From assembly GCA_947494155.1 (NCBI GenBank), contig CANLTW010000001.1, forward strand, positions 96,001-160,000: DNA of 64,000 bases, in the 5' to 3' direction. Shown here one piece after another: positions 45,973 to 52,345 of this stretch. Position 1 is the first letter of the stretch; the number at the start of each line of letters is the position of its first letter. The notes beneath the pieces were generated by a model that searched no databases, was not told where the DNA came from, and saw only the letters and a list, made by a program, of their open reading frames with translations. Source of the DNA: Chlamydiota bacterium. Its GTDB lineage: Bacteria > Chlamydiota > Chlamydiia > Chlamydiales > RGXB01. The position numbers were made by a program, and so were the translations under genes.

Positions 45973-46907
45973 GGGGGTAAAATCTGGACGTTATCCAGAT
46001 ATTGCAATTCATGGACCGAAGGGGTTGCCGAGAGCCCGTACGCGTATCCACCCTCTTTGAGAGGATCGATTTTTGTGACCACTCCCACATGTAGTCCTCT
46101 TGGAAAAATCCCATCTAAGCCCGTAGTGACCAGAAGGTCTCCCACCCGGATCAGGTGCTCTGTTCTTAAATCAAAGGGGCCACCCTCGCTATCTGCAAAA
46201 TCATAATTGAACCCGTAGCCACTTAAGGTGTCGTAAGCTACCCTCCAACCCGGATTTGCTACCCCTTGAATCACCCCTTTTGCTAAAAGCGCCCCCCTTA
46301 ATGGTCTCACCTTCTCCAATAAAACCTGAATCCAATCATTGGTGAGCTCTTTATGCTCCTGGTTTTTAAAGATCTCCTCCTCTTTTTCTAAAAGATTCTT
46401 AAGCTCATAAAGCCTCTCTTCAAGATAGATCCCTTTTTTCCCCCGGTCCACGCGCACAGCTATTTGTAATTTCGGGTCTGTAATTAGACGCACAAGGCTC
46501 TTTTTTTCTAGCACCTCCTCGATCACCCCCACTACCCCTTTACCTAAAACAACGGGGCTTTTTTTTGCGATGACTGTGGCCCCCAATCGTTTGTTATCCG
46601 CCTCTCCCCTGTCTACCCAAAGAAAGGAGCCGAAAGAGATATTTTCCCTAAAGATCACTTTAGCCTGTATCGCATCCCAGTCTTTTAGGTCGTAGTTAAG
46701 CTGGTTGCGTATTGCATCCAACTCATCCTTCAAAAGAAGATTTTCCAAACTTAGTAGCTCAAGTGTACTATCTCCCCCCGCTTGTGCCGAGCTAAAAAAC
46801 TTTTGCACGCTCGATCTTAGGCGGATCTCTTTCACAAAAGGGATTTGAAAAATCAAAAATAGGATCAGAGACAAAAATAAGAGTGTAGAACCTAGTTTTT
46901 TATCCAT
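45960..46907 (-). CDS. mreC: rod shape-determining protein MreC
   Basis: N-terminal TM, AKVIFR, GVVG-I-V, GDLLVTTGLDGIFPRGLHVG. Confidence 0.88.
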   Translation of the reverse strand: MDKKLGSTLLFLSLILFLIFQIPFVKEIRLRSSVQKFFSSAQAGGDSTLELLSLENLLLKDELDAIRNQLNYDLKDWDAIQAKVIFRENISFGSFLWVDRGEADNKRLGATVIAKKSPVVLGKGVVGVIEEVLEKKSLVRLITDPKLQIAVRVDRGKKGIYLEERLYELKNLLEKEEEIFKNQEHKELTNDWIQVLLEKVRPLRGALLAKGVIQGVANPGWRVAYDTLSGYGFNYDFADSEGGPFDLRTEHLIRVGDLLVTTGLDGIFPRGLHVGVVTKIDPLKEGGYAYGLSATPSVHELQYLDNVQILPPQWG

Positions 46908-48078
46908 GACGCAACCTTGAAAAAACCTGTTTAAGCCGCCCGATGTTTGCCGAGTTTACCCCTAAAACATTTAATCTCGAGTCATCGAGCAAATATATGC
47001 TCTCTTTTCTCAACTCCAGAACCGCATCTTTAGATATTCCCAGATAGGAAAAAAACCCTTTCGCCTCTTGGAACTCTTTTTTATGCTGAATCCAGCCCCC
47101 AAATTCTTTCAGTATTAGCTCTCTCATGGCACAGCTTCTCAGCCGGTGCTCCTCGAGCTCATCAAGCCAAAGTTTTTTTCTTTTTAAATCTGTTAATACT
47201 GTTTTGACAACCAGTGCACCATGCGCCGGTGGACTAGAATAATTGCGACGTATGATCTGTTTTATAGTGCTTTGCATCCCCTCATGAGTATGACTCCGAT
47301 TGACAATCATCAGCGCCCCAACCCTTTCCCTATAGAGATCCATAGTTTTTGAATAGGAGAAGGCAACGCACATCTCGATCCCGCTTTTAAAAAAGGTGTT
47401 GACTGCATACCGGTCTTCATCGATTCCATCTCCAAGCCCTAGATAAGCGATATCAAAGAGAGGTAAAAGCCCCTTTTTGAGACAACAATCTAAAATTAAA
47501 TCCCATTCACTGTGGGTAAAATCGATCCCGGTGGGGTTATGGCAACAGCCATGAAGCAAAAGAATGGATCCTTTCTCCAAACGGTGTAAAAAATCAAAAA
47601 ACTCGCCCTTTTTGGCCGTGTGTGTTGTCCGATCATAGTAGGGATAGGTTCTCACCTCAAGACCTGCAGCTTTGAACACACCGTGGTGGTTAGCCCATGT
47701 GGGGTCCGAGACATAGATGGGATGATTCCACTCCAATCTAAGATAATCGGCAAGCACCCTTAGAGCACCAGTCCCCCCTAAAGTCTGTGCTGCTGTAACC
47801 AGAGGAGCATTTTCTAAGAAAAGGAGTTTTTTCGTCTCCTCAAGAAAGTCATGATCCCCCTCGATAGGAAGGTAAGTTTTGGAGACCTCATTCTCGATTA
47901 AAAATTCTTCAGCCTCCTTTACCGCTTTTAAAACGGGGCACTTCCCCTTTTCATCAAGATAGATACCCATTCCCAAATTTATTTTTTCAGAGTTAGGATC
48001 TTTGGCCCACATTCTGCCTATCTCAAGCACCGGATCGACAGGTTGTGATCCCACATGTTCAAAAAAAAGATGCGTCAT
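46900..48078 (-). CDS. aspC: aspartate/aromatic aminotransferase (AspC/TyrB)
   Basis: KINLGMGIY, QTLGGTGAL, PTWANH, CCHNPTG, DIAY, SYSK-LYRERVG. Confidence 0.93.
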   Translation of the reverse strand: MTHLFFEHVGSQPVDPVLEIGRMWAKDPNSEKINLGMGIYLDEKGKCPVLKAVKEAEEFLIENEVSKTYLPIEGDHDFLEETKKLLFLENAPLVTAAQTLGGTGALRVLADYLRLEWNHPIYVSDPTWANHHGVFKAAGLEVRTYPYYDRTTHTAKKGEFFDFLHRLEKGSILLLHGCCHNPTGIDFTHSEWDLILDCCLKKGLLPLFDIAYLGLGDGIDEDRYAVNTFFKSGIEMCVAFSYSKTMDLYRERVGALMIVNRSHTHEGMQSTIKQIIRRNYSSPPAHGALVVKTVLTDLKRKKLWLDELEEHRLRSCAMRELILKEFGGWIQHKKEFQEAKGFFSYLGISKDAVLELRKESIYLLDDSRLNVLGVNSANIGRLKQVFSRLRHG

Positions 48079-48129
48079 AGAGCCCCTGAATCAAAAAAAG
48101 TTTTTTAAACTATTATCTAAAAGTTCACG

Positions 48130-48155
48130 AATAGAGACAACTAGAAAAGTTGTTT
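48130..48155 (-). terminator. conserved hairpin downstream of tRNA-Ala (copy A)
   Basis: AGACAAC-TAGAAAA-GTTGTTT; 26 nt identical to 49991-50016 while flanks have diverged. Confidence 0.5.
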
Positions 48156-48192
48156 ATTGGCATGTATTCTTGGAAGTAAAGAAGGGATGAAA

Positions 48193-48265
48193 TGGAGTAT
48201 AGCGGACTCGAACCGCTGACCCCAACGCTGCCAGCGTTGGGGTCTACCAACTGAGCTAATACCCC
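48193..48265 (-). tRNA. tRNA-Ala(GGC), aberrant copy with disrupted D-stem (possible pseudo-tRNA)
   Basis: G3:U70, GGC anticodon and T-loop intact; D-stem 3' side reads GACC-C instead of GAGC-A. Confidence 0.85.
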
Positions 48266-48272
48266 GTCAGAC

Positions 48273-49940
48273 TTATTCCTTACCCTCAACAGCCTCAAGG
48301 AAAGCTTGTAGCTGCTTGGATCGGGTGGGATGACGCATTTTTCTCAAAGCTTTGGCCTCAATTTGGCGCACCCTTTCACGAGTTACCTTAAATTGCACAC
48401 CTACCTCTTCAAGAGTTTTCGGTTTTCCGTCAAGTAAACCGAAACGTTCGATTAATACTGTACGCTCTCTGTCAGTTAATGTAGAGAGAACTTCGTTTAT
48501 TTTGTCTTTTAAAATTGAATAGCCGGTGGCATCCGCTGGCGATTCTGTAGCGGTATCCTCAAGAAAATCACCAAATTGGCTCTCTCCGCTGTCTCCCACT
48601 TCTGCTTGTAAAGAGATGGGGTGTTGAGCGATACGATAAATCTCACGCACGCGATCAGGTGTCAACCCAAGCTCTTTTGCCAGCTCTTCTGGAGTAGGCT
48701 CTTTACCTGTCTCCATCATGAGCTTTTTGGCCCCCCTTAATACACGATTGATTGTTTCAATCATGTGCACAGGGATACGGATCGTGCGGGCCTGATCGGC
48801 AATAGCTCGTGTTACTGCTTGTCGAATCCACCAGGTGGCATAAGTAGAAAATTTATAACCTCGGCGGTATTCAAACTTTTCCACAGCCTTCATTAGCCCC
48901 ATGTTCCCCTCTTCAATCAAATCCAAGAAAGAAAGGCCACGGTTAGTGTATTTTTTTGCAATCGAGATCACAAGGCGCAGGTTGGACTCTACCATTTCTC
49001 TTTTAGCTTCCTGGCTCTTGTCCATCCAGCGCTGCAACATGCGGACATCTTTTTTATATTCGTCCAATGTCCTTCCGGCAGCAAGCTCTCTTAAAAAAAG
49101 TCGGCGTCTGGCAGAAAAAAGTTTTTGCGCTGCAAAGCGATTTTTTTCAGCTCTAGGGGTAAGATCTTTGATCTCTTTTTCCAAATGCAAAAGTCTGTCG
49201 TAGCTTGAGAGGATTACTTCGCCGAAATCTTCGATCACCGAATATTTCAGGTGCATGCGTCGCAAGTAGGCTTGAGTTCTTATACGACTTTTTTCTATCG
49301 CCTCGAGAACTTTGATCCTTTCTGCCTTGTTGTTATCCACCTTTTTCATTTTCAAAAGCTGCGGCTCTAAAAAAGCATCCTCTTTAGAAAGGAGCTCCTC
49401 TAGCTTAGGCAACAATTGCATGAACTTAGCGCGGTCTTCCACCTCTTTTTCAGCAGCAATTTTATCAAAACGTTCTTTACCAGCGATAAGGTAACGGATT
49501 ATGGAGCAAGTCTCCCTTTCGGAATAGCGAAAGCGCATAATGATTCTTTCGATCTGCATTTGCGCTTTTTCAATCCTTTTGGAAATTTCGACCTCTTCCT
49601 CGCGAGTAAGAAGGGGAAAAGAACCCATCTCTTTGAGATACATCCTAACGGGATCATCTGCAGCTGCATCGGAGCGTTTTGGTAAGAGTTCTAATTCTTT
49701 AGCCTCTTTTTTACGCTCTTTTTGCTTCTCAATCTCTGCTTGATTGTAGATCTGGATATCCATCCCACTCAAGAAAATCAATACTTGATCGATCTCTTCC
49801 GCCGTGTCAAATGTCATCGGAAGGATATCATTGATCTCTTCGTAGGTGATGAATCCCTGTTCCTTAGCAACAGCGACCAGCTCCTCGATTTTTTGCTGAT
49901 ATTGAGGATCCGTGTGTTGGTTGTCGGATGGCTTGCTCAT
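48273..49940 (-). CDS. rpoD: RNA polymerase primary sigma factor (sigma66), downstream variant copy
   Basis: regions 1.1-4.2 all present, 555 aa from ATG 49940 with AAGGAG; DLIEEGN variant. Confidence 0.95.
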
Positions 49941-49990
49941 AGTCTCCTTTAGTGAAAAAAGGTTTTTTATCAACTACCTAGTCCAGTGAC

Positions 49991-50016
49991 AATAGAGACA
50001 ACTAGAAAAGTTGTTT
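49991..50016 (-). terminator. conserved hairpin downstream of tRNA-Ala (copy B)
   Basis: identical 26-nt block to 48130-48155. Confidence 0.5.
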
Positions 50017-50053
50017 CTTTACGTGTGTTTTTAGAATTAAAGAAAGGATTAAA

Positions 50054-50126
50054 TGGAGTATAGCGGACTCGAACCGCTGACCCCAACGCTGCCAGCGTTG
50101 TGCTCTACCAACTGAGCTAATACCCC
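50054..50126 (-). tRNA. tRNA-Ala(GGC), canonical, CCA not encoded
   Basis: GGGGTATTAGCTCAGTTGGTAGAGCACAACGCTGGCAGCGTTGGGGTCAGCGGTTCGAGTCCGCTATACTCCA folds as a full cloverleaf with G3:U70. Confidence 0.97.
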
Positions 50127-50133
50127 GTCAGAC

Positions 50134-51807
50134 TTATTCCTTCCCCTCAACAGCCTCAAGGAAAGCTTGTAGCTGCTTGGATCGGGTGGGATGACGCATT
50201 TTTCTCAAAGCTTTGGCCTCAATTTGGCGCACCCTTTCACGAGTTACCTTAAATTGCACACCTACCTCTTCGAGAGTTTTCGGTTTTCCGTCAAGTAAAC
50301 CGAAACGTTCGATTAATACTGTACGCTCTCTGTCAGTTAATGTCGAGAGAACTTCGTTCATTTTATCTTTTAGGATCGAATATCCTGTAGCATCTGCAGG
50401 GGACTCGGTAGCGGTATCCTCAAGGAAATCACCAAATTGACTCTCTCCGCTGTCTCCCACTTCTGCTTGCAAGGAGATCGGATGTTGAGCAATTCGATAA
50501 ATCTCACGCACCCTATCCGGAGTCAACCCAAGCTCTTTAGCAAGCTCCTCGGGCGTCGGCTCCTTACCTGTCTCCATCATGAGCTTTTTAGCGCCCCTTA
50601 ATACACGGTTGATAGTCTCAATCATGTGTACAGGGATACGGATCGTGCGAGCCTGATCGGCAATCGCTCGTGTTACTGCTTGTCGAATCCACCAGGTGGC
50701 ATAGGTAGAGAATTTATACCCGCGTCGGTATTCAAATTTTTCCACCGCCTTCATTAACCCCATGTTCCCCTCTTGGATCAGATCCAAGAAAGAAAGGCCA
50801 CGGTTCGTGTATTTTTTCGCAATCGAGATCACAAGGCGCAGGTTGGACTCTACCATCTCTCTTTTAGCTTCCTGGCTCTTGTCCATCCAGCGCTGCAACA
50901 TGCGGACATCTTTTTTATATTCGTCCAATGTCCTTCCGGCAGCAAGCTCTCTTAAAAATAGACGTCGTCTCGCCGAAAAAAGTTTTTGCGCTGCAAAGCG
51001 ATTTTTTTCTGCTCTTGGAATAAGATCTTTGATCTCTTTTTCCAAATGCAAAAGCCTGTCATAGCTTGAGAGGATTACTTCGCCGAAATCTTCAATTACC
51101 GAATATTTCAGGTGCATGCGTCGCAAGTAGGCTTGTGTTCTTATACGGCTTTTTTCTATCGCCTCAAGGACTTTGATCCTTTCAGCCTTATTATTTTCCA
51201 CCTCTTTCATTTTCAGAAGCTGCGGCTCTAAAAAAGCATCCTCTTTAGAAAGGAGCTCCTCTAGTTTAGGCAATAGTTGCATGAATTTGGCGCGGTCTTC
51301 CACCTCTTTTTCGGCAACAATTTTATCAAAGCGTTCTTTGCCGGAGATGAGATAACGGATGATTGAGCAGGTCTCTCTTTCAGAGTAACGGAAGCGCATG
51401 ATGATCCTTTCGATCTGCATTTGCGCTTTTTCGATCCTTTTGGAAATTTCGACCTCTTCTTCGCGAGTAAGAAGGGGGACAGAACCCATCTCTTTAAGAT
51501 ACATCCTAACGGGATCATCTGCAGCTGCATCAGAGCGTTTTGGCAAGAGTTCTAATTCTTTAGCCTCTTTTTTACGCTCTTTTTGCTTCTCAATCTCTGC
51601 TTGATTGTAGATCTGGATATCCATCCCACTTAAGAAAATCAATACTTGATCGATCTCTTCCGCAGTGTCAAATGTCATCGGAAGGATATCATTGATCTCT
51701 TCGTAGGTGATGAATCCCTGTTCCTTAGCAACAGCGACCAGCTCCTCGATTTTTTGCTGATATTGAGGATCCGTGTGTTGGTTTTCGGATGGTTTGCTCA
51801 TATTCAT
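50134..51807 (-). CDS. rpoD: RNA polymerase primary sigma factor (sigma66), canonical copy (start may be 51801)
   Basis: [45 protein letters not shown]. Confidence 0.97.
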
Positions 51808-51810
51808 GAT

Positions 51811-51839
51811 ATTGTTATATGAATATCACTTAATGTCAA
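51811..51839 (-). promoter_or_regulatory. candidate rpoD promoter with very short leader
   Basis: TTGACA-N17-AACAAT on the minus strand, 9 nt before ATG 51801; no Shine-Dalgarno. Confidence 0.45.
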
Positions 51840-51913
51840 GTTTTGAACAGTCCACCTCCGCTAGCCCTCATAAAAGAAAAAAAAGGGGGGAGCCTTCTGA
51901 CGCCCGTTTTCGT

Positions 51914-52345
51914 ATGGCCAAAAGCTCCTTGCATAGAGACATTCAGCTTTTTTTATGCAACTACTACTCCGGTGAAGATCTTTTAATGGAAAAAAAATTC
52001 CCCTCAATTAAAAGGACGGCAGACCTGGTTTTACTCAAACAAAAAAAGGTCTTTGAGGTGCAGACCTCTTTAATAGGGATTAAAGAGCTTTTAGAGCGCG
52101 AAAGGGATTACCGCTCACTAGGGTATGAAATTACCTGGCTCCTTTACGATAAAATTTTTTACTGTGAACCGCCGCTTCTAGTCACACGTGTTTTTTCTTC
52201 CAAAAACACCTATTATTTCTCGTTTCACAACGAGAAGCTCTTTTTATTTCGTAATCTAGACCTCGAGCCAGTCCCGGTCGATTTGTTTTTTCAACCCGAT
52301 CCATTTTACAAAAAATGTTTGCGATTTTTTAAAGGTTTTCTTTAG
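51914..52345 (+). CDS. CoiA-like nuclease-fold protein
   Basis: RTADLV-VFEVQTS-ERE-Y-LGY-WL; start moved to ATG 51914. Confidence 0.7.
   Translation: MAKSSLHRDIQLFLCNYYSGEDLLMEKKFPSIKRTADLVLLKQKKVFEVQTSLIGIKELLERERDYRSLGYEITWLLYDKIFYCEPPLLVTRVFSSKNTYYFSFHNEKLFLFRNLDLEPVPVDLFFQPDPFYKKCLRFFKGFL

Follow-up and report, generated by a model that had tools for sequence, protein, structure and literature searches.

A tandem pair of intact genes for the primary sigma factor sigma66 (rpoD) was identified in a 64,000-nucleotide (nt) stretch of DNA (hereafter, the window) from an uncultured freshwater member of the Chlamydiota. The window lies on contig C1 (215,970 nt) of a 24-contig, 1.41-Mb metagenome bin, labeled G000, with an estimated completeness of 97.6% and an estimated contamination of 0.03%. 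The pair consists of two repeats of the same unit, in which rpoD is followed by a tRNA-Ala(GGC) gene and a spacer; it is real, and it is rare for the phylum. In the explanation that we favor, to which we give an even chance, the tandem pair is genuine, one copy (c1) was recombined beside the other (c2), and c1 would supply a working sigma66 isoform of the same specificity. Chlamydiae have the textbook minimal set of sigma factors (sigma66, sigma28, and sigma54), and control of sigma66 availability is considered pivotal to their development.

The locus is transcribed from the minus strand in the order promoter-like site, c2, tRNA-a, spacer_a, c1, tRNA-b, spacer_b, aminotransferase gene, and mreC. 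The features that are discussed below are the following (coordinates refer to the window):

51811..51839, minus strand: promoter-like site TTGACA-17-AACAAT before c2 (consensus scan, 10 of 12 matches; conserved in congeners)
50134..51801, minus strand: rpoD copy c2, 555 amino acids (aa) from MSKPS (open frame, five Sigma70 domains; nearest relative, the rpoD of congener G006)
50054..50126, minus strand: tRNA-Ala(GGC) copy a, tRNA-a (ARAGORN; Rfam RF00005, 65.9 bits; genus-typical sequence)
49941..50053, minus strand: junction spacer, spacer_a, 113 nt (base-by-base alignment; paralogous to spacer_b)
48273..49940, minus strand: rpoD copy c1, 555 aa (open frame, five Sigma70 domains; nearest relative, the rpoD of congener G005)
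48193..48265, minus strand: tRNA-Ala(GGC) copy b, tRNA-b (ARAGORN; Rfam, 51.8 bits)
48079..48192, minus strand: spacer_b, 114 nt, upstream of the aminotransferase gene (differs very little from the G006 spacer)
46900..48078, minus strand: class I/II aminotransferase gene (PF00155, 4.7e-52; the far boundary of the repeat lies at its start codon)

A repeat search detected a single direct-repeat family in the window, with the copies head to tail at a spacing of 1861 nt; self-identity at this offset is 0.76 to 1.00 across positions ~48150 to 49950 vs 0.14 to 0.42 outside. Each 1.86-kb unit (unit 1, 48079 to 49940; unit 2, 49941 to 51801) contains one rpoD, one tRNA-Ala(GGC) gene, and one spacer. 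The original prediction, made from the letters of the sequence, had proposed a repeated unit of about 1861 bp with a tRNA-Ala behind each rpoD; the former was borne out by the repeat search together with a base-by-base alignment, and the latter by ARAGORN, with which Rfam agrees. The two tRNA genes, each 7 nt past an rpoD stop, are the only ones that ARAGORN found in the window, and they are the only tRNA-Ala genes among the 34 tRNA genes in the 24 contigs.

In single-copy relatives, the spacer is followed by the ATG of the aminotransferase gene, and rpoD is preceded by a conserved promoter. Here, the end of the spacer stands directly before the ATG of c1, and only ~4 nt (about TATG) are in common with the alternative joins. 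Because this adjacency is absent from single-copy arrangements and the overlap is so short, no assembler could have built the junction from single-copy strains. The sequencing runs that contain the stretch are freshwater or lake metagenomes; in one of them (run X2, record 19), which belongs to a different study and went through a different pipeline, a 494-nt contig (window positions 49587 to 50080, four other letters) bridges the junction. Through two of these four letters, codon 108 of c1 encodes V instead of F, and the tandem pair is therefore also present in another population that has variants of its own. A further contig, 293,206 nt long, is likewise recorded as encoding the exact c1 protein. 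No exact match to a 25-nt junction word was found in the JGI metagenome contigs, an exact-word search being a weak test, and an 18-nt junction word hit eight JGI loci, none of which resembled the region by blastn, so that these were chance matches. Run depth was not usable as a measure of copy number. Thus, the locus is a head-to-tail tandem duplication with a novel junction in real DNA. The view taken in the original prediction, that the duplication is real rather than an artifact of assembly, is supported both by the logic of the junction and by the X2 contig that crosses position 49940.

The c1 and c2 frames translate without stops over 555 codons each from MSKPS; in c2, an alternative in-frame ATG two codons upstream, at 51807, gives a 557-aa protein that begins with MNMSKPS. 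Both copies match the models for sigma-70 regions 1.1, 1.2, 2, 3, and 4 (PF03979, PF00140, PF04542, PF04539, and PF04545) above the curated cutoffs, with a region 2 score of 80.0 bits for c1 and 84.1 bits for c2. Over residues 1 to 555, RpoD of the window is 96 to 98% identical to that of the six congeners, and identity to RpoD of 34 other genomes of the order is 52 to 83%. The best matches among solved structures are RpoD/SigA chains (E value of 1e-115 and weaker), ahead of RpoS (E value of ~1e-64). Judged by these comparisons, both copies are full-length group 1 (primary) members of the sigma-70 family.

The two genes differ at 114 of 1,668 nt (93.2% identity), with 10, 2, and 102 of the differences at codon positions 1, 2, and 3, respectively. 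The differing codons comprise 100 synonymous and 9 nonsynonymous cases, and the proteins are 98.4% identical, with differences at positions 6, 108, 153, 162, 200, 202, 261, 343, and 481. These are exactly the nine residue differences between two intact 555-aa frames that had been listed before, and the excess of synonymous third-position changes noted with them also stood. At eight of the nine positions, c2 holds the consensus residue among 11 sequences compared, and c1 holds a derived one (F108, A153, A162, K200, D202, T261, E343, and I481). The V108F change in c1 affects a position that is V in 79 of 80 chlamydial loci, and Q343E affects one that is Q in all 80. By an ungapped offset of 63 to the 613-residue chain, position 343 equals Q406 of Escherichia coli, which is named among the core-binding residues of region 2.2 (D403, Q406, E407, and N409) (bioRxiv 10.1101/2020.09.07.285775). 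At these four positions, c2 carries D-Q-E-N and c1 carries D-E-E-N. The remaining changes in c1 map either to the variable segment that separates region 1.2 from region 2 or to a site immediately preceding region 4, and none of the nine lies in regions 2.3-2.4 or 4.2, stretches that are invariant in the sequence alignment. Because the DNA-reading regions do not differ, both proteins should read the same promoters, that is, c1 and c2 should share promoter specificity.

The two copies are not each other's closest relatives. The c1 gene is 94.2% identical to rpoD of G005 at the nucleotide level (synonymous divergence [dS], 0.27) and the c2 gene is 95.6% identical to that of G006 (dS, 0.24), vs a dS of 0.37 between c1 and c2. 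Among the informative sites of this quartet, 55 group c1 with G005 and c2 with G006, 2 group c1 with c2, and 6 support the third split. A recent in situ duplication, after G000 and G006 parted, was considered and rejected on the count of 2 vs 55 sites. As reconstructed from these alignments, the bulk of the synonymous divergence lies between two allele lineages that are also found as sole rpoD genes, and the c1 lineage split off before G000 and G006 parted.

The surroundings of rpoD were compared in the same manner. Between G000 and G005, dS is 1.0 to 3.0 for the flanking genes vs 0.27 to 0.49 for rpoD (G005 rpoD: locus L023/L004, contig C4, 9452 to 11116). Because G005 rpoD is much closer than the G005 flanks, this essential gene has been exchanged between species of the genus. 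Between G000 and G006, nine flanking genes have a dS of 0.36 to 0.58 vs 0.13 for the aminotransferase gene. A tract at ~47000 to 48400, which covers the aminotransferase gene, spacer_b, tRNA-b, and the 3' end of c1, is 95 to 99% identical to G006 on a background of ~90% and looks like a recent homologous import. In the first 750 nt of c2, 13 positions differ from G006. A single-copy form of the locus was found in run X3 (record 25), in which the 3' end of c2 and its tRNA (49991 to 50695; 705 nt with no other letters) are joined to a diverged aminotransferase start. Given this single-copy form with c2-identical sequence, c2 stands at the ancestral position; by sequence, it is the resident orthologue with the native promoter, sister to the G006 gene.

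A further allele bears on c1. Protein P0010, encoded on a 1,966-nt JGI metagenome contig, combines a G005-type background with E343, I481, and A153 and starts with MNMSKPS. This start exists only in the native promoter context, and the E343 allele therefore also occurs at the normal rpoD position, outside the tandem. The Q343E change may be tolerated, because E343 is found in P0010, apparently at the native locus.

Pairwise comparison of c1 and c2 gives a nonsynonymous divergence (dN) of 0.0077 and, with a dS of 0.37, a dN/dS ratio (omega) of 0.02 (NG86) or 0.04 (YN00). The inner branch, which separates the two allele lineages, has 52 cleanly counted codon changes, all of them synonymous. The counts on the outer branches are as follows:

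c1: 5 nonsynonymous (8 including codons where others also vary), 13 synonymous
c2: 1 nonsynonymous, 12 synonymous
G005: 4 nonsynonymous, 44 synonymous
G006: 1 nonsynonymous, 34 synonymous

The 5 nonsynonymous and 13 synonymous changes on the c1 branch differ from the 6 and 142 on all other branches together (Fisher P = 0.0026). The c1 branch is less constrained than the other branches, yet not neutral: its omega is ~0.10 to 0.17, which is not near 1, vs ~0.011 elsewhere. Part of the c1 branch may predate the tandem.

Two conclusions that the original prediction drew from the synonymous excess do not follow as stated. One is that the duplication is not very recent. Divergence between lineages that also exist as single genes could have accumulated before the copies became tandem. 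The other is that selection kept the second protein. The constraint could have acted in lineages living as sole rpoD genes, to which the 52 synonymous inner-branch changes belong, so the synonymous excess is no proof of selection on a second copy. Both conclusions would hold if the duplication predates the G000/G006 split and G006 lost its copy. The evolutionary inference is thus only partly supported, and the two-sigma66 system that was proposed on these grounds stays hypothetical.

The expression signals of the two copies differ. The sequence upstream of c2, including TTGACA-17-AACAAT, is common to all six congeners; the -10-like hexamer ends 9 nt before the ATG of MSKPS, and c2 is without a Shine-Dalgarno motif. 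Conversely, c1 starts exactly behind the aminotransferase leader: spacer_a ends in AAGGAG-ACT-ATG, with a strong Shine-Dalgarno motif. The 3' half of spacer_a resembles the G005 spacer. A promoter-like site, TTGTCT-17-GATAAT, is present in spacer_b at 48140 to 48112; its -10-like hexamer GATAAT is also found in G005 and reads GGTAGT in spacer_a. The tRNAs are likewise unequal. The D-arm of tRNA-a is identical in the six congeners, and tRNA-b carries two substitutions that are absent from every congener, one of which gives a nonstandard D-stem pair; the Rfam score is 51.8 bits for tRNA-b vs 65.9 bits for tRNA-a (gathering score, 29), and both fold into a cloverleaf with a GGC anticodon.

No minus-strand terminator-like site was called in 47900 to 52200, which, with 4 sites in total vs a shuffle mean of 4.9, is weak support for read-through only. 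Since no such site was called between c2 and c1, read-through is predicted to be likely, and we infer cotranscription of c1 with c2 and the tRNA, and translation of c1 on its own signals. In metatranscriptome run X15, contigs cover c2 and tRNA-a (50060 to 50397 with no other letters; 50404 to 51424 with 29 other letters and one gap, i.e., a relative), and c1 is represented only by pieces of 32 to 41 nt at 48760 to 48800; these are contigs, possibly derived from DNA, and so are uninformative as to whether c1 is silent.

Two side observations concern these leaders. Because the -10-like hexamer of c2 is only 9 nt from the ATG and a Shine-Dalgarno motif is lacking, the native rpoD mRNA of the genus is predicted to be perhaps nearly leaderless. 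In addition, an inverted repeat (ACAACT, 5 nt, AGTTGT) at 48125 to 48150 and 49986 to 50011 overlaps the -35-like hexamer that precedes the aminotransferase gene. The repeat is kept, amid diverging surroundings, in all four versions of the spacer (the two in the window and those of G005 and G006) and may be an operator.

Taken together, a sequence of steps can be proposed for the origin of the pair and for its operation. The join runs from start codon to start codon, the duplicated unit extending from the rpoD ATG to just before the aminotransferase ATG; through such a join, c1, the second copy in the order of transcription, would have lost the rpoD promoter and gained the aminotransferase leader. 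c1 and c2 belong to distinct allele lineages, and rpoD recombines between species of the genus; most likely, recombination with a relative would have placed c1 next to c2 or maintained it there, with a homologous anchor on one side and a microhomology join on the other. Later patches of G006-like DNA would then have overwritten parts of the locus. In operation, read-through from the c2 promoter across tRNA-a is predicted to supply the c1 transcript, perhaps with a contribution from the weakened promoter in the spacer, and the ribosome-binding site of c1 itself would then direct synthesis of a working sigma66 isoform. Such an isoform would add to or buffer the supply of sigma66, its grip on the core polymerase possibly altered by Q343E, with no new regulon.

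The explanations that compete with this one differ chiefly in how the two lineages came to lie side by side and in what c1 does. An old in situ tandem duplication, before the G000/G006 split, could have produced both copies, which selection would have kept as a true two-sigma66 system; G006 and the single-copy forms would then have lost one copy by recombination between the repeats, and G005-like genomes would have obtained c1-type sequence by homologous recombination. We hold this scenario to be possible, though rather unlikely. It would account for a dS of 0.37 at an omega of 0.02 to 0.04 with both frames intact (a tandem pair of permease genes in the same genome has an omega of 0.19 to 0.28 at a similar nucleotide identity), for spacer copies that are ~68 to 80% alike, close to the synonymous divergence, and for a c1 branch that is far from neutral. 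It needs no unsampled donor lineage, and genus g153 (see below) shows that tandem rpoD pairs can be long kept in the order, with an omega of ~0.02 to 0.1 for both copies. However, the pair is present in only one of seven species of the genus, the X3 single-copy form carries c2-identical sequence, and the spacer and rpoD center of G005 resemble spacer_a and c1 despite saturated flanks; given these single-copy forms and the likeness to G005, an old duplication needs several extra transfer and loss events. Furthermore, tRNA-b and the -10-like hexamer of spacer_a look degraded, and the E343/I481 allele stands, in P0010, in the native promoter context. Because P0010 pairs a G005-type background and E343, I481, and A153 with the native MNMSKPS start, capture of c1 from a relative would be slightly favored over an old duplication. 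Quite unlikely, in our estimate, is that c1 is redundant, silent or barely expressed, and heading for loss, with its frame intact only for want of time. This would fit a copy without a promoter of its own, in which the -10-like hexamer of the spacer has gone from GATAAT to GGTAGT and which holds eight of the nine derived residues, including one at a position with Q in all 80 loci and one at a position with V in 79 of them; its companion tRNA-b is down by 14 bits and one D-stem pair, tandem repeats are readily deleted, and six of six congeners are single copy. A silent gene is harder to reconcile with an open frame of 555 codons under a strong Shine-Dalgarno motif, with the lack of a called minus-strand terminator-like site between c2 and c1, and with a ratio of nonsynonymous to synonymous changes on the c1 branch that is well below neutral. 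Moreover, E343 and I481 are also found in a native-locus allele, and the pair is present in at least two data sets of different studies with sequence differences, including V108 for F108 in X2. Finally, two co-occurring strains or species with one rpoD each could have been strung together in assembly, which we consider highly improbable. The source is a 24-contig metagenome bin in which each copy resembles a different species, the Logan contigs of the runs are badly fragmented across both copies, and the same bin holds a second tandem pair of similar divergence. Nevertheless, spacer_a adjoins the rpoD ATG in no single-copy arrangement, with ~4 shared nt that are far below the word length of an assembler; a different assembler yielded a contig across the junction from a run of a different study; and the contamination estimate is 0.03%, with the exact c1 protein recovered on a second, longer contig.

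Several points weigh against the recombination of c1 beside c2, which we nonetheless prefer. The direction of allele flow is one of these: had an old in situ duplication been followed by transfer of c1-type sequence into G005-like genomes and by loss of a copy from G006, most of the same facts would result. Outgroup polarization of the 55 sites gave 25 with the c2-G006 state derived, 16 with the c1-G005 state derived, and 14 undecided, a noisy result from four saturated outgroups. The second tandem pair in G000 consists of amino acid permease genes (contig C9, 24383 to 28555; locus L127) in a 2.09-kb unit at 91.6% identity; the 463-aa copies are 92.4% identical at the protein level, with the omega given above. 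A permease-type gene of this kind is single in five of the six congeners and fragmented over contig ends in G006, and the copies are closer to each other than to those of G006 (84 to 87%) or G005 (73 to 75%). Since the permease copies are mutual nearest relatives, plain in situ duplication does happen in G000. The departure of the c1 branch from neutrality (binomial P = 5e-6 to 6e-5) could mean that c1 was kept by selection, and A153, E343, and I481, being common to P0010, need not reflect constraint that was relaxed after the tandem formed. In addition, the promoter scan, which counts consensus matches only, found 6 sites vs 5.3 expected in shuffled sequences.

The window also contains, next to the pair, a divergent open reading frame (ORF) of 190 aa on the plus strand (51773 to 52345), the called start of which overlaps the 5' end of c2. 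Its product matches the nuclease-like domain of the competence protein CoiA (PF06054, 4.7e-09), and a domain related to DNA uptake thus adjoins a locus rich in recombination tracts.

To place the pair within the phylum, rpoD matches were counted across genomes. Each of 40 relatives, including the six congeners (uncultured lake or freshwater metagenome bins titled Chlamydiae or Chlamydiia bacterium), has one match, and G000 is the only one of the seven species of the genus with a pair. In a phylum sample of 400 scored genomes, 391 had a match and 13 had at least two matches; ten of the twelve other multimatch genomes were examined, with G232 and G348 (weak best E values) left out. The statement of the original prediction that one sigma66 gene is normal in chlamydiae holds in the genomes searched. 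Among the papers listed for duplicated or paralogous rpoD or sigma66 in Chlamydiae, judged by titles and the beginnings of abstracts, none describes such a duplication. The double matches in G150, G291, and G292 proved to be one gene split over contig ends, and the second match in G155 is partial (54%) and not a second full-length copy; the other six of the ten genomes all come from genus g153, which has a true pair. That sigma-70-type match (G155 contig C91, 101 to 889; 54% identity to residues 288 to 551) lies on a small contig in a genome that has a normal rpoD too and could be a diverged sigma factor or contamination.

A second case of tandem rpoD was found in genus g153 (family f33 of the same order), where two full-length genes are present in six of six sampled species (loci L025 to L033 and L036; G263 contig C2, 111537 to 114928; G276 contig C5, 71475 to 74866; G307 contig C13, 65975 to 69380; G357 contig C3, 2279 to 5659; G400 contig C109, 12805 to 15827). 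The pair is on one contig in five species, with the second copy cut by the contig end in G400, and on two contigs in G274. The paralogues are 74 to 77% identical, have five Sigma70 domains each, and lie on the same strand 90 to 330 nt apart; dS is saturated, and where it can be estimated, omega is 0.02 to 0.11. The upstream copy is the fast one; the downstream copy is conservative and alone is followed by tRNA-Ala(GGC). The fast copy shows a T-to-Q and an A-to-S change in region 2.4, at the positions equal to T440 and A444 of E. coli, the former of which recognizes the -10 element at its upstream end. In the tree, the g153 copies group in a clade of their own (support, 100/99), and their duplication is therefore independent of that in G000. 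Both pairs consist of two full-length rpoD genes on the same strand, one conservative and one fast. Unlike the G000 pair, that of g153 is far older and occurs in all six sampled species, its fast copy is upstream, and a tRNA follows the downstream copy only.

Compared with known systems, the G000 pair is closest to ordinary chlamydial sigma66: both copies are full-length group 1 factors that share 73 to 84% identity with rpoD of other members of the phylum, Chlamydia species among them, and each is followed by tRNA-Ala(GGC), an arrangement also seen in the congeners and in further genera of the order. The differences are the presence of two copies and the E of c1 at a position where all 80 loci have Q. 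Group 2 sigma factors, such as RpoS, cyanobacterial SigB to SigE, and Streptomyces HrdA, HrdC, and HrdD, are primary-like, dispensable, coexisting paralogues that read similar promoters; by definition, such a factor has diverged from the primary sigma of which it is a paralogue and has regulation or a promoter preference of its own. Like these, c1 is a coexisting paralogue of a primary sigma factor, and its change at the core interface in region 2.2 recalls sigma38, which differs from sigma70 in this region (PMC5389655). Unlike group 2 factors, c1 is nearly identical to c2, keeps region 1.1, and has unchanged DNA-reading regions; its translation signals are separate. Judging from sequence, c1 does not qualify as a group 2 factor by any feature tested and would be, at most, a first step towards one.

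With regard to formation, tandem duplication mediated by microhomology, or homology-facilitated illegitimate recombination, is a known concept. The locus resembles its products in having ~4 bases shared on one side and long homology on the other, amid abundant homologous exchange around the locus. The likeness ends there in that we infer the route from the final structure, and slipped or unequal-crossover duplication would give the same one.

A broader interpretation, which we regard as doubtful, is that extra primary-type sigma factors arise repeatedly in environmental chlamydiae through tandem duplication of rpoD, with g153 representing the mature state and the G000 pair the earliest stage. 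Chlamydia has three sigma factors (PMC10597470). If the interpretation is true, the T-to-Q change of g153 at the position of E. coli T440 would imply a fourth chlamydial sigma factor with an altered -10 preference, and c1 of G000, already on a different leader and with a change in core binding, would compete differently with c2 for the core polymerase. The immediate weight of these findings is limited by the uncultured state of the organisms and by the putative character of the function ascribed to the second copy. Nevertheless, two intact sigma66 genes in G000, together with a genus that has an old, diverged pair, show that the chlamydial set of sigma factors is not fixed, and they offer natural cases for how a primary sigma factor begins splitting in two. 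In addition, the locus clearly documents how species of an intracellular group have exchanged an essential gene by homologous recombination, which bears on the extent of recombination in environmental chlamydiae.

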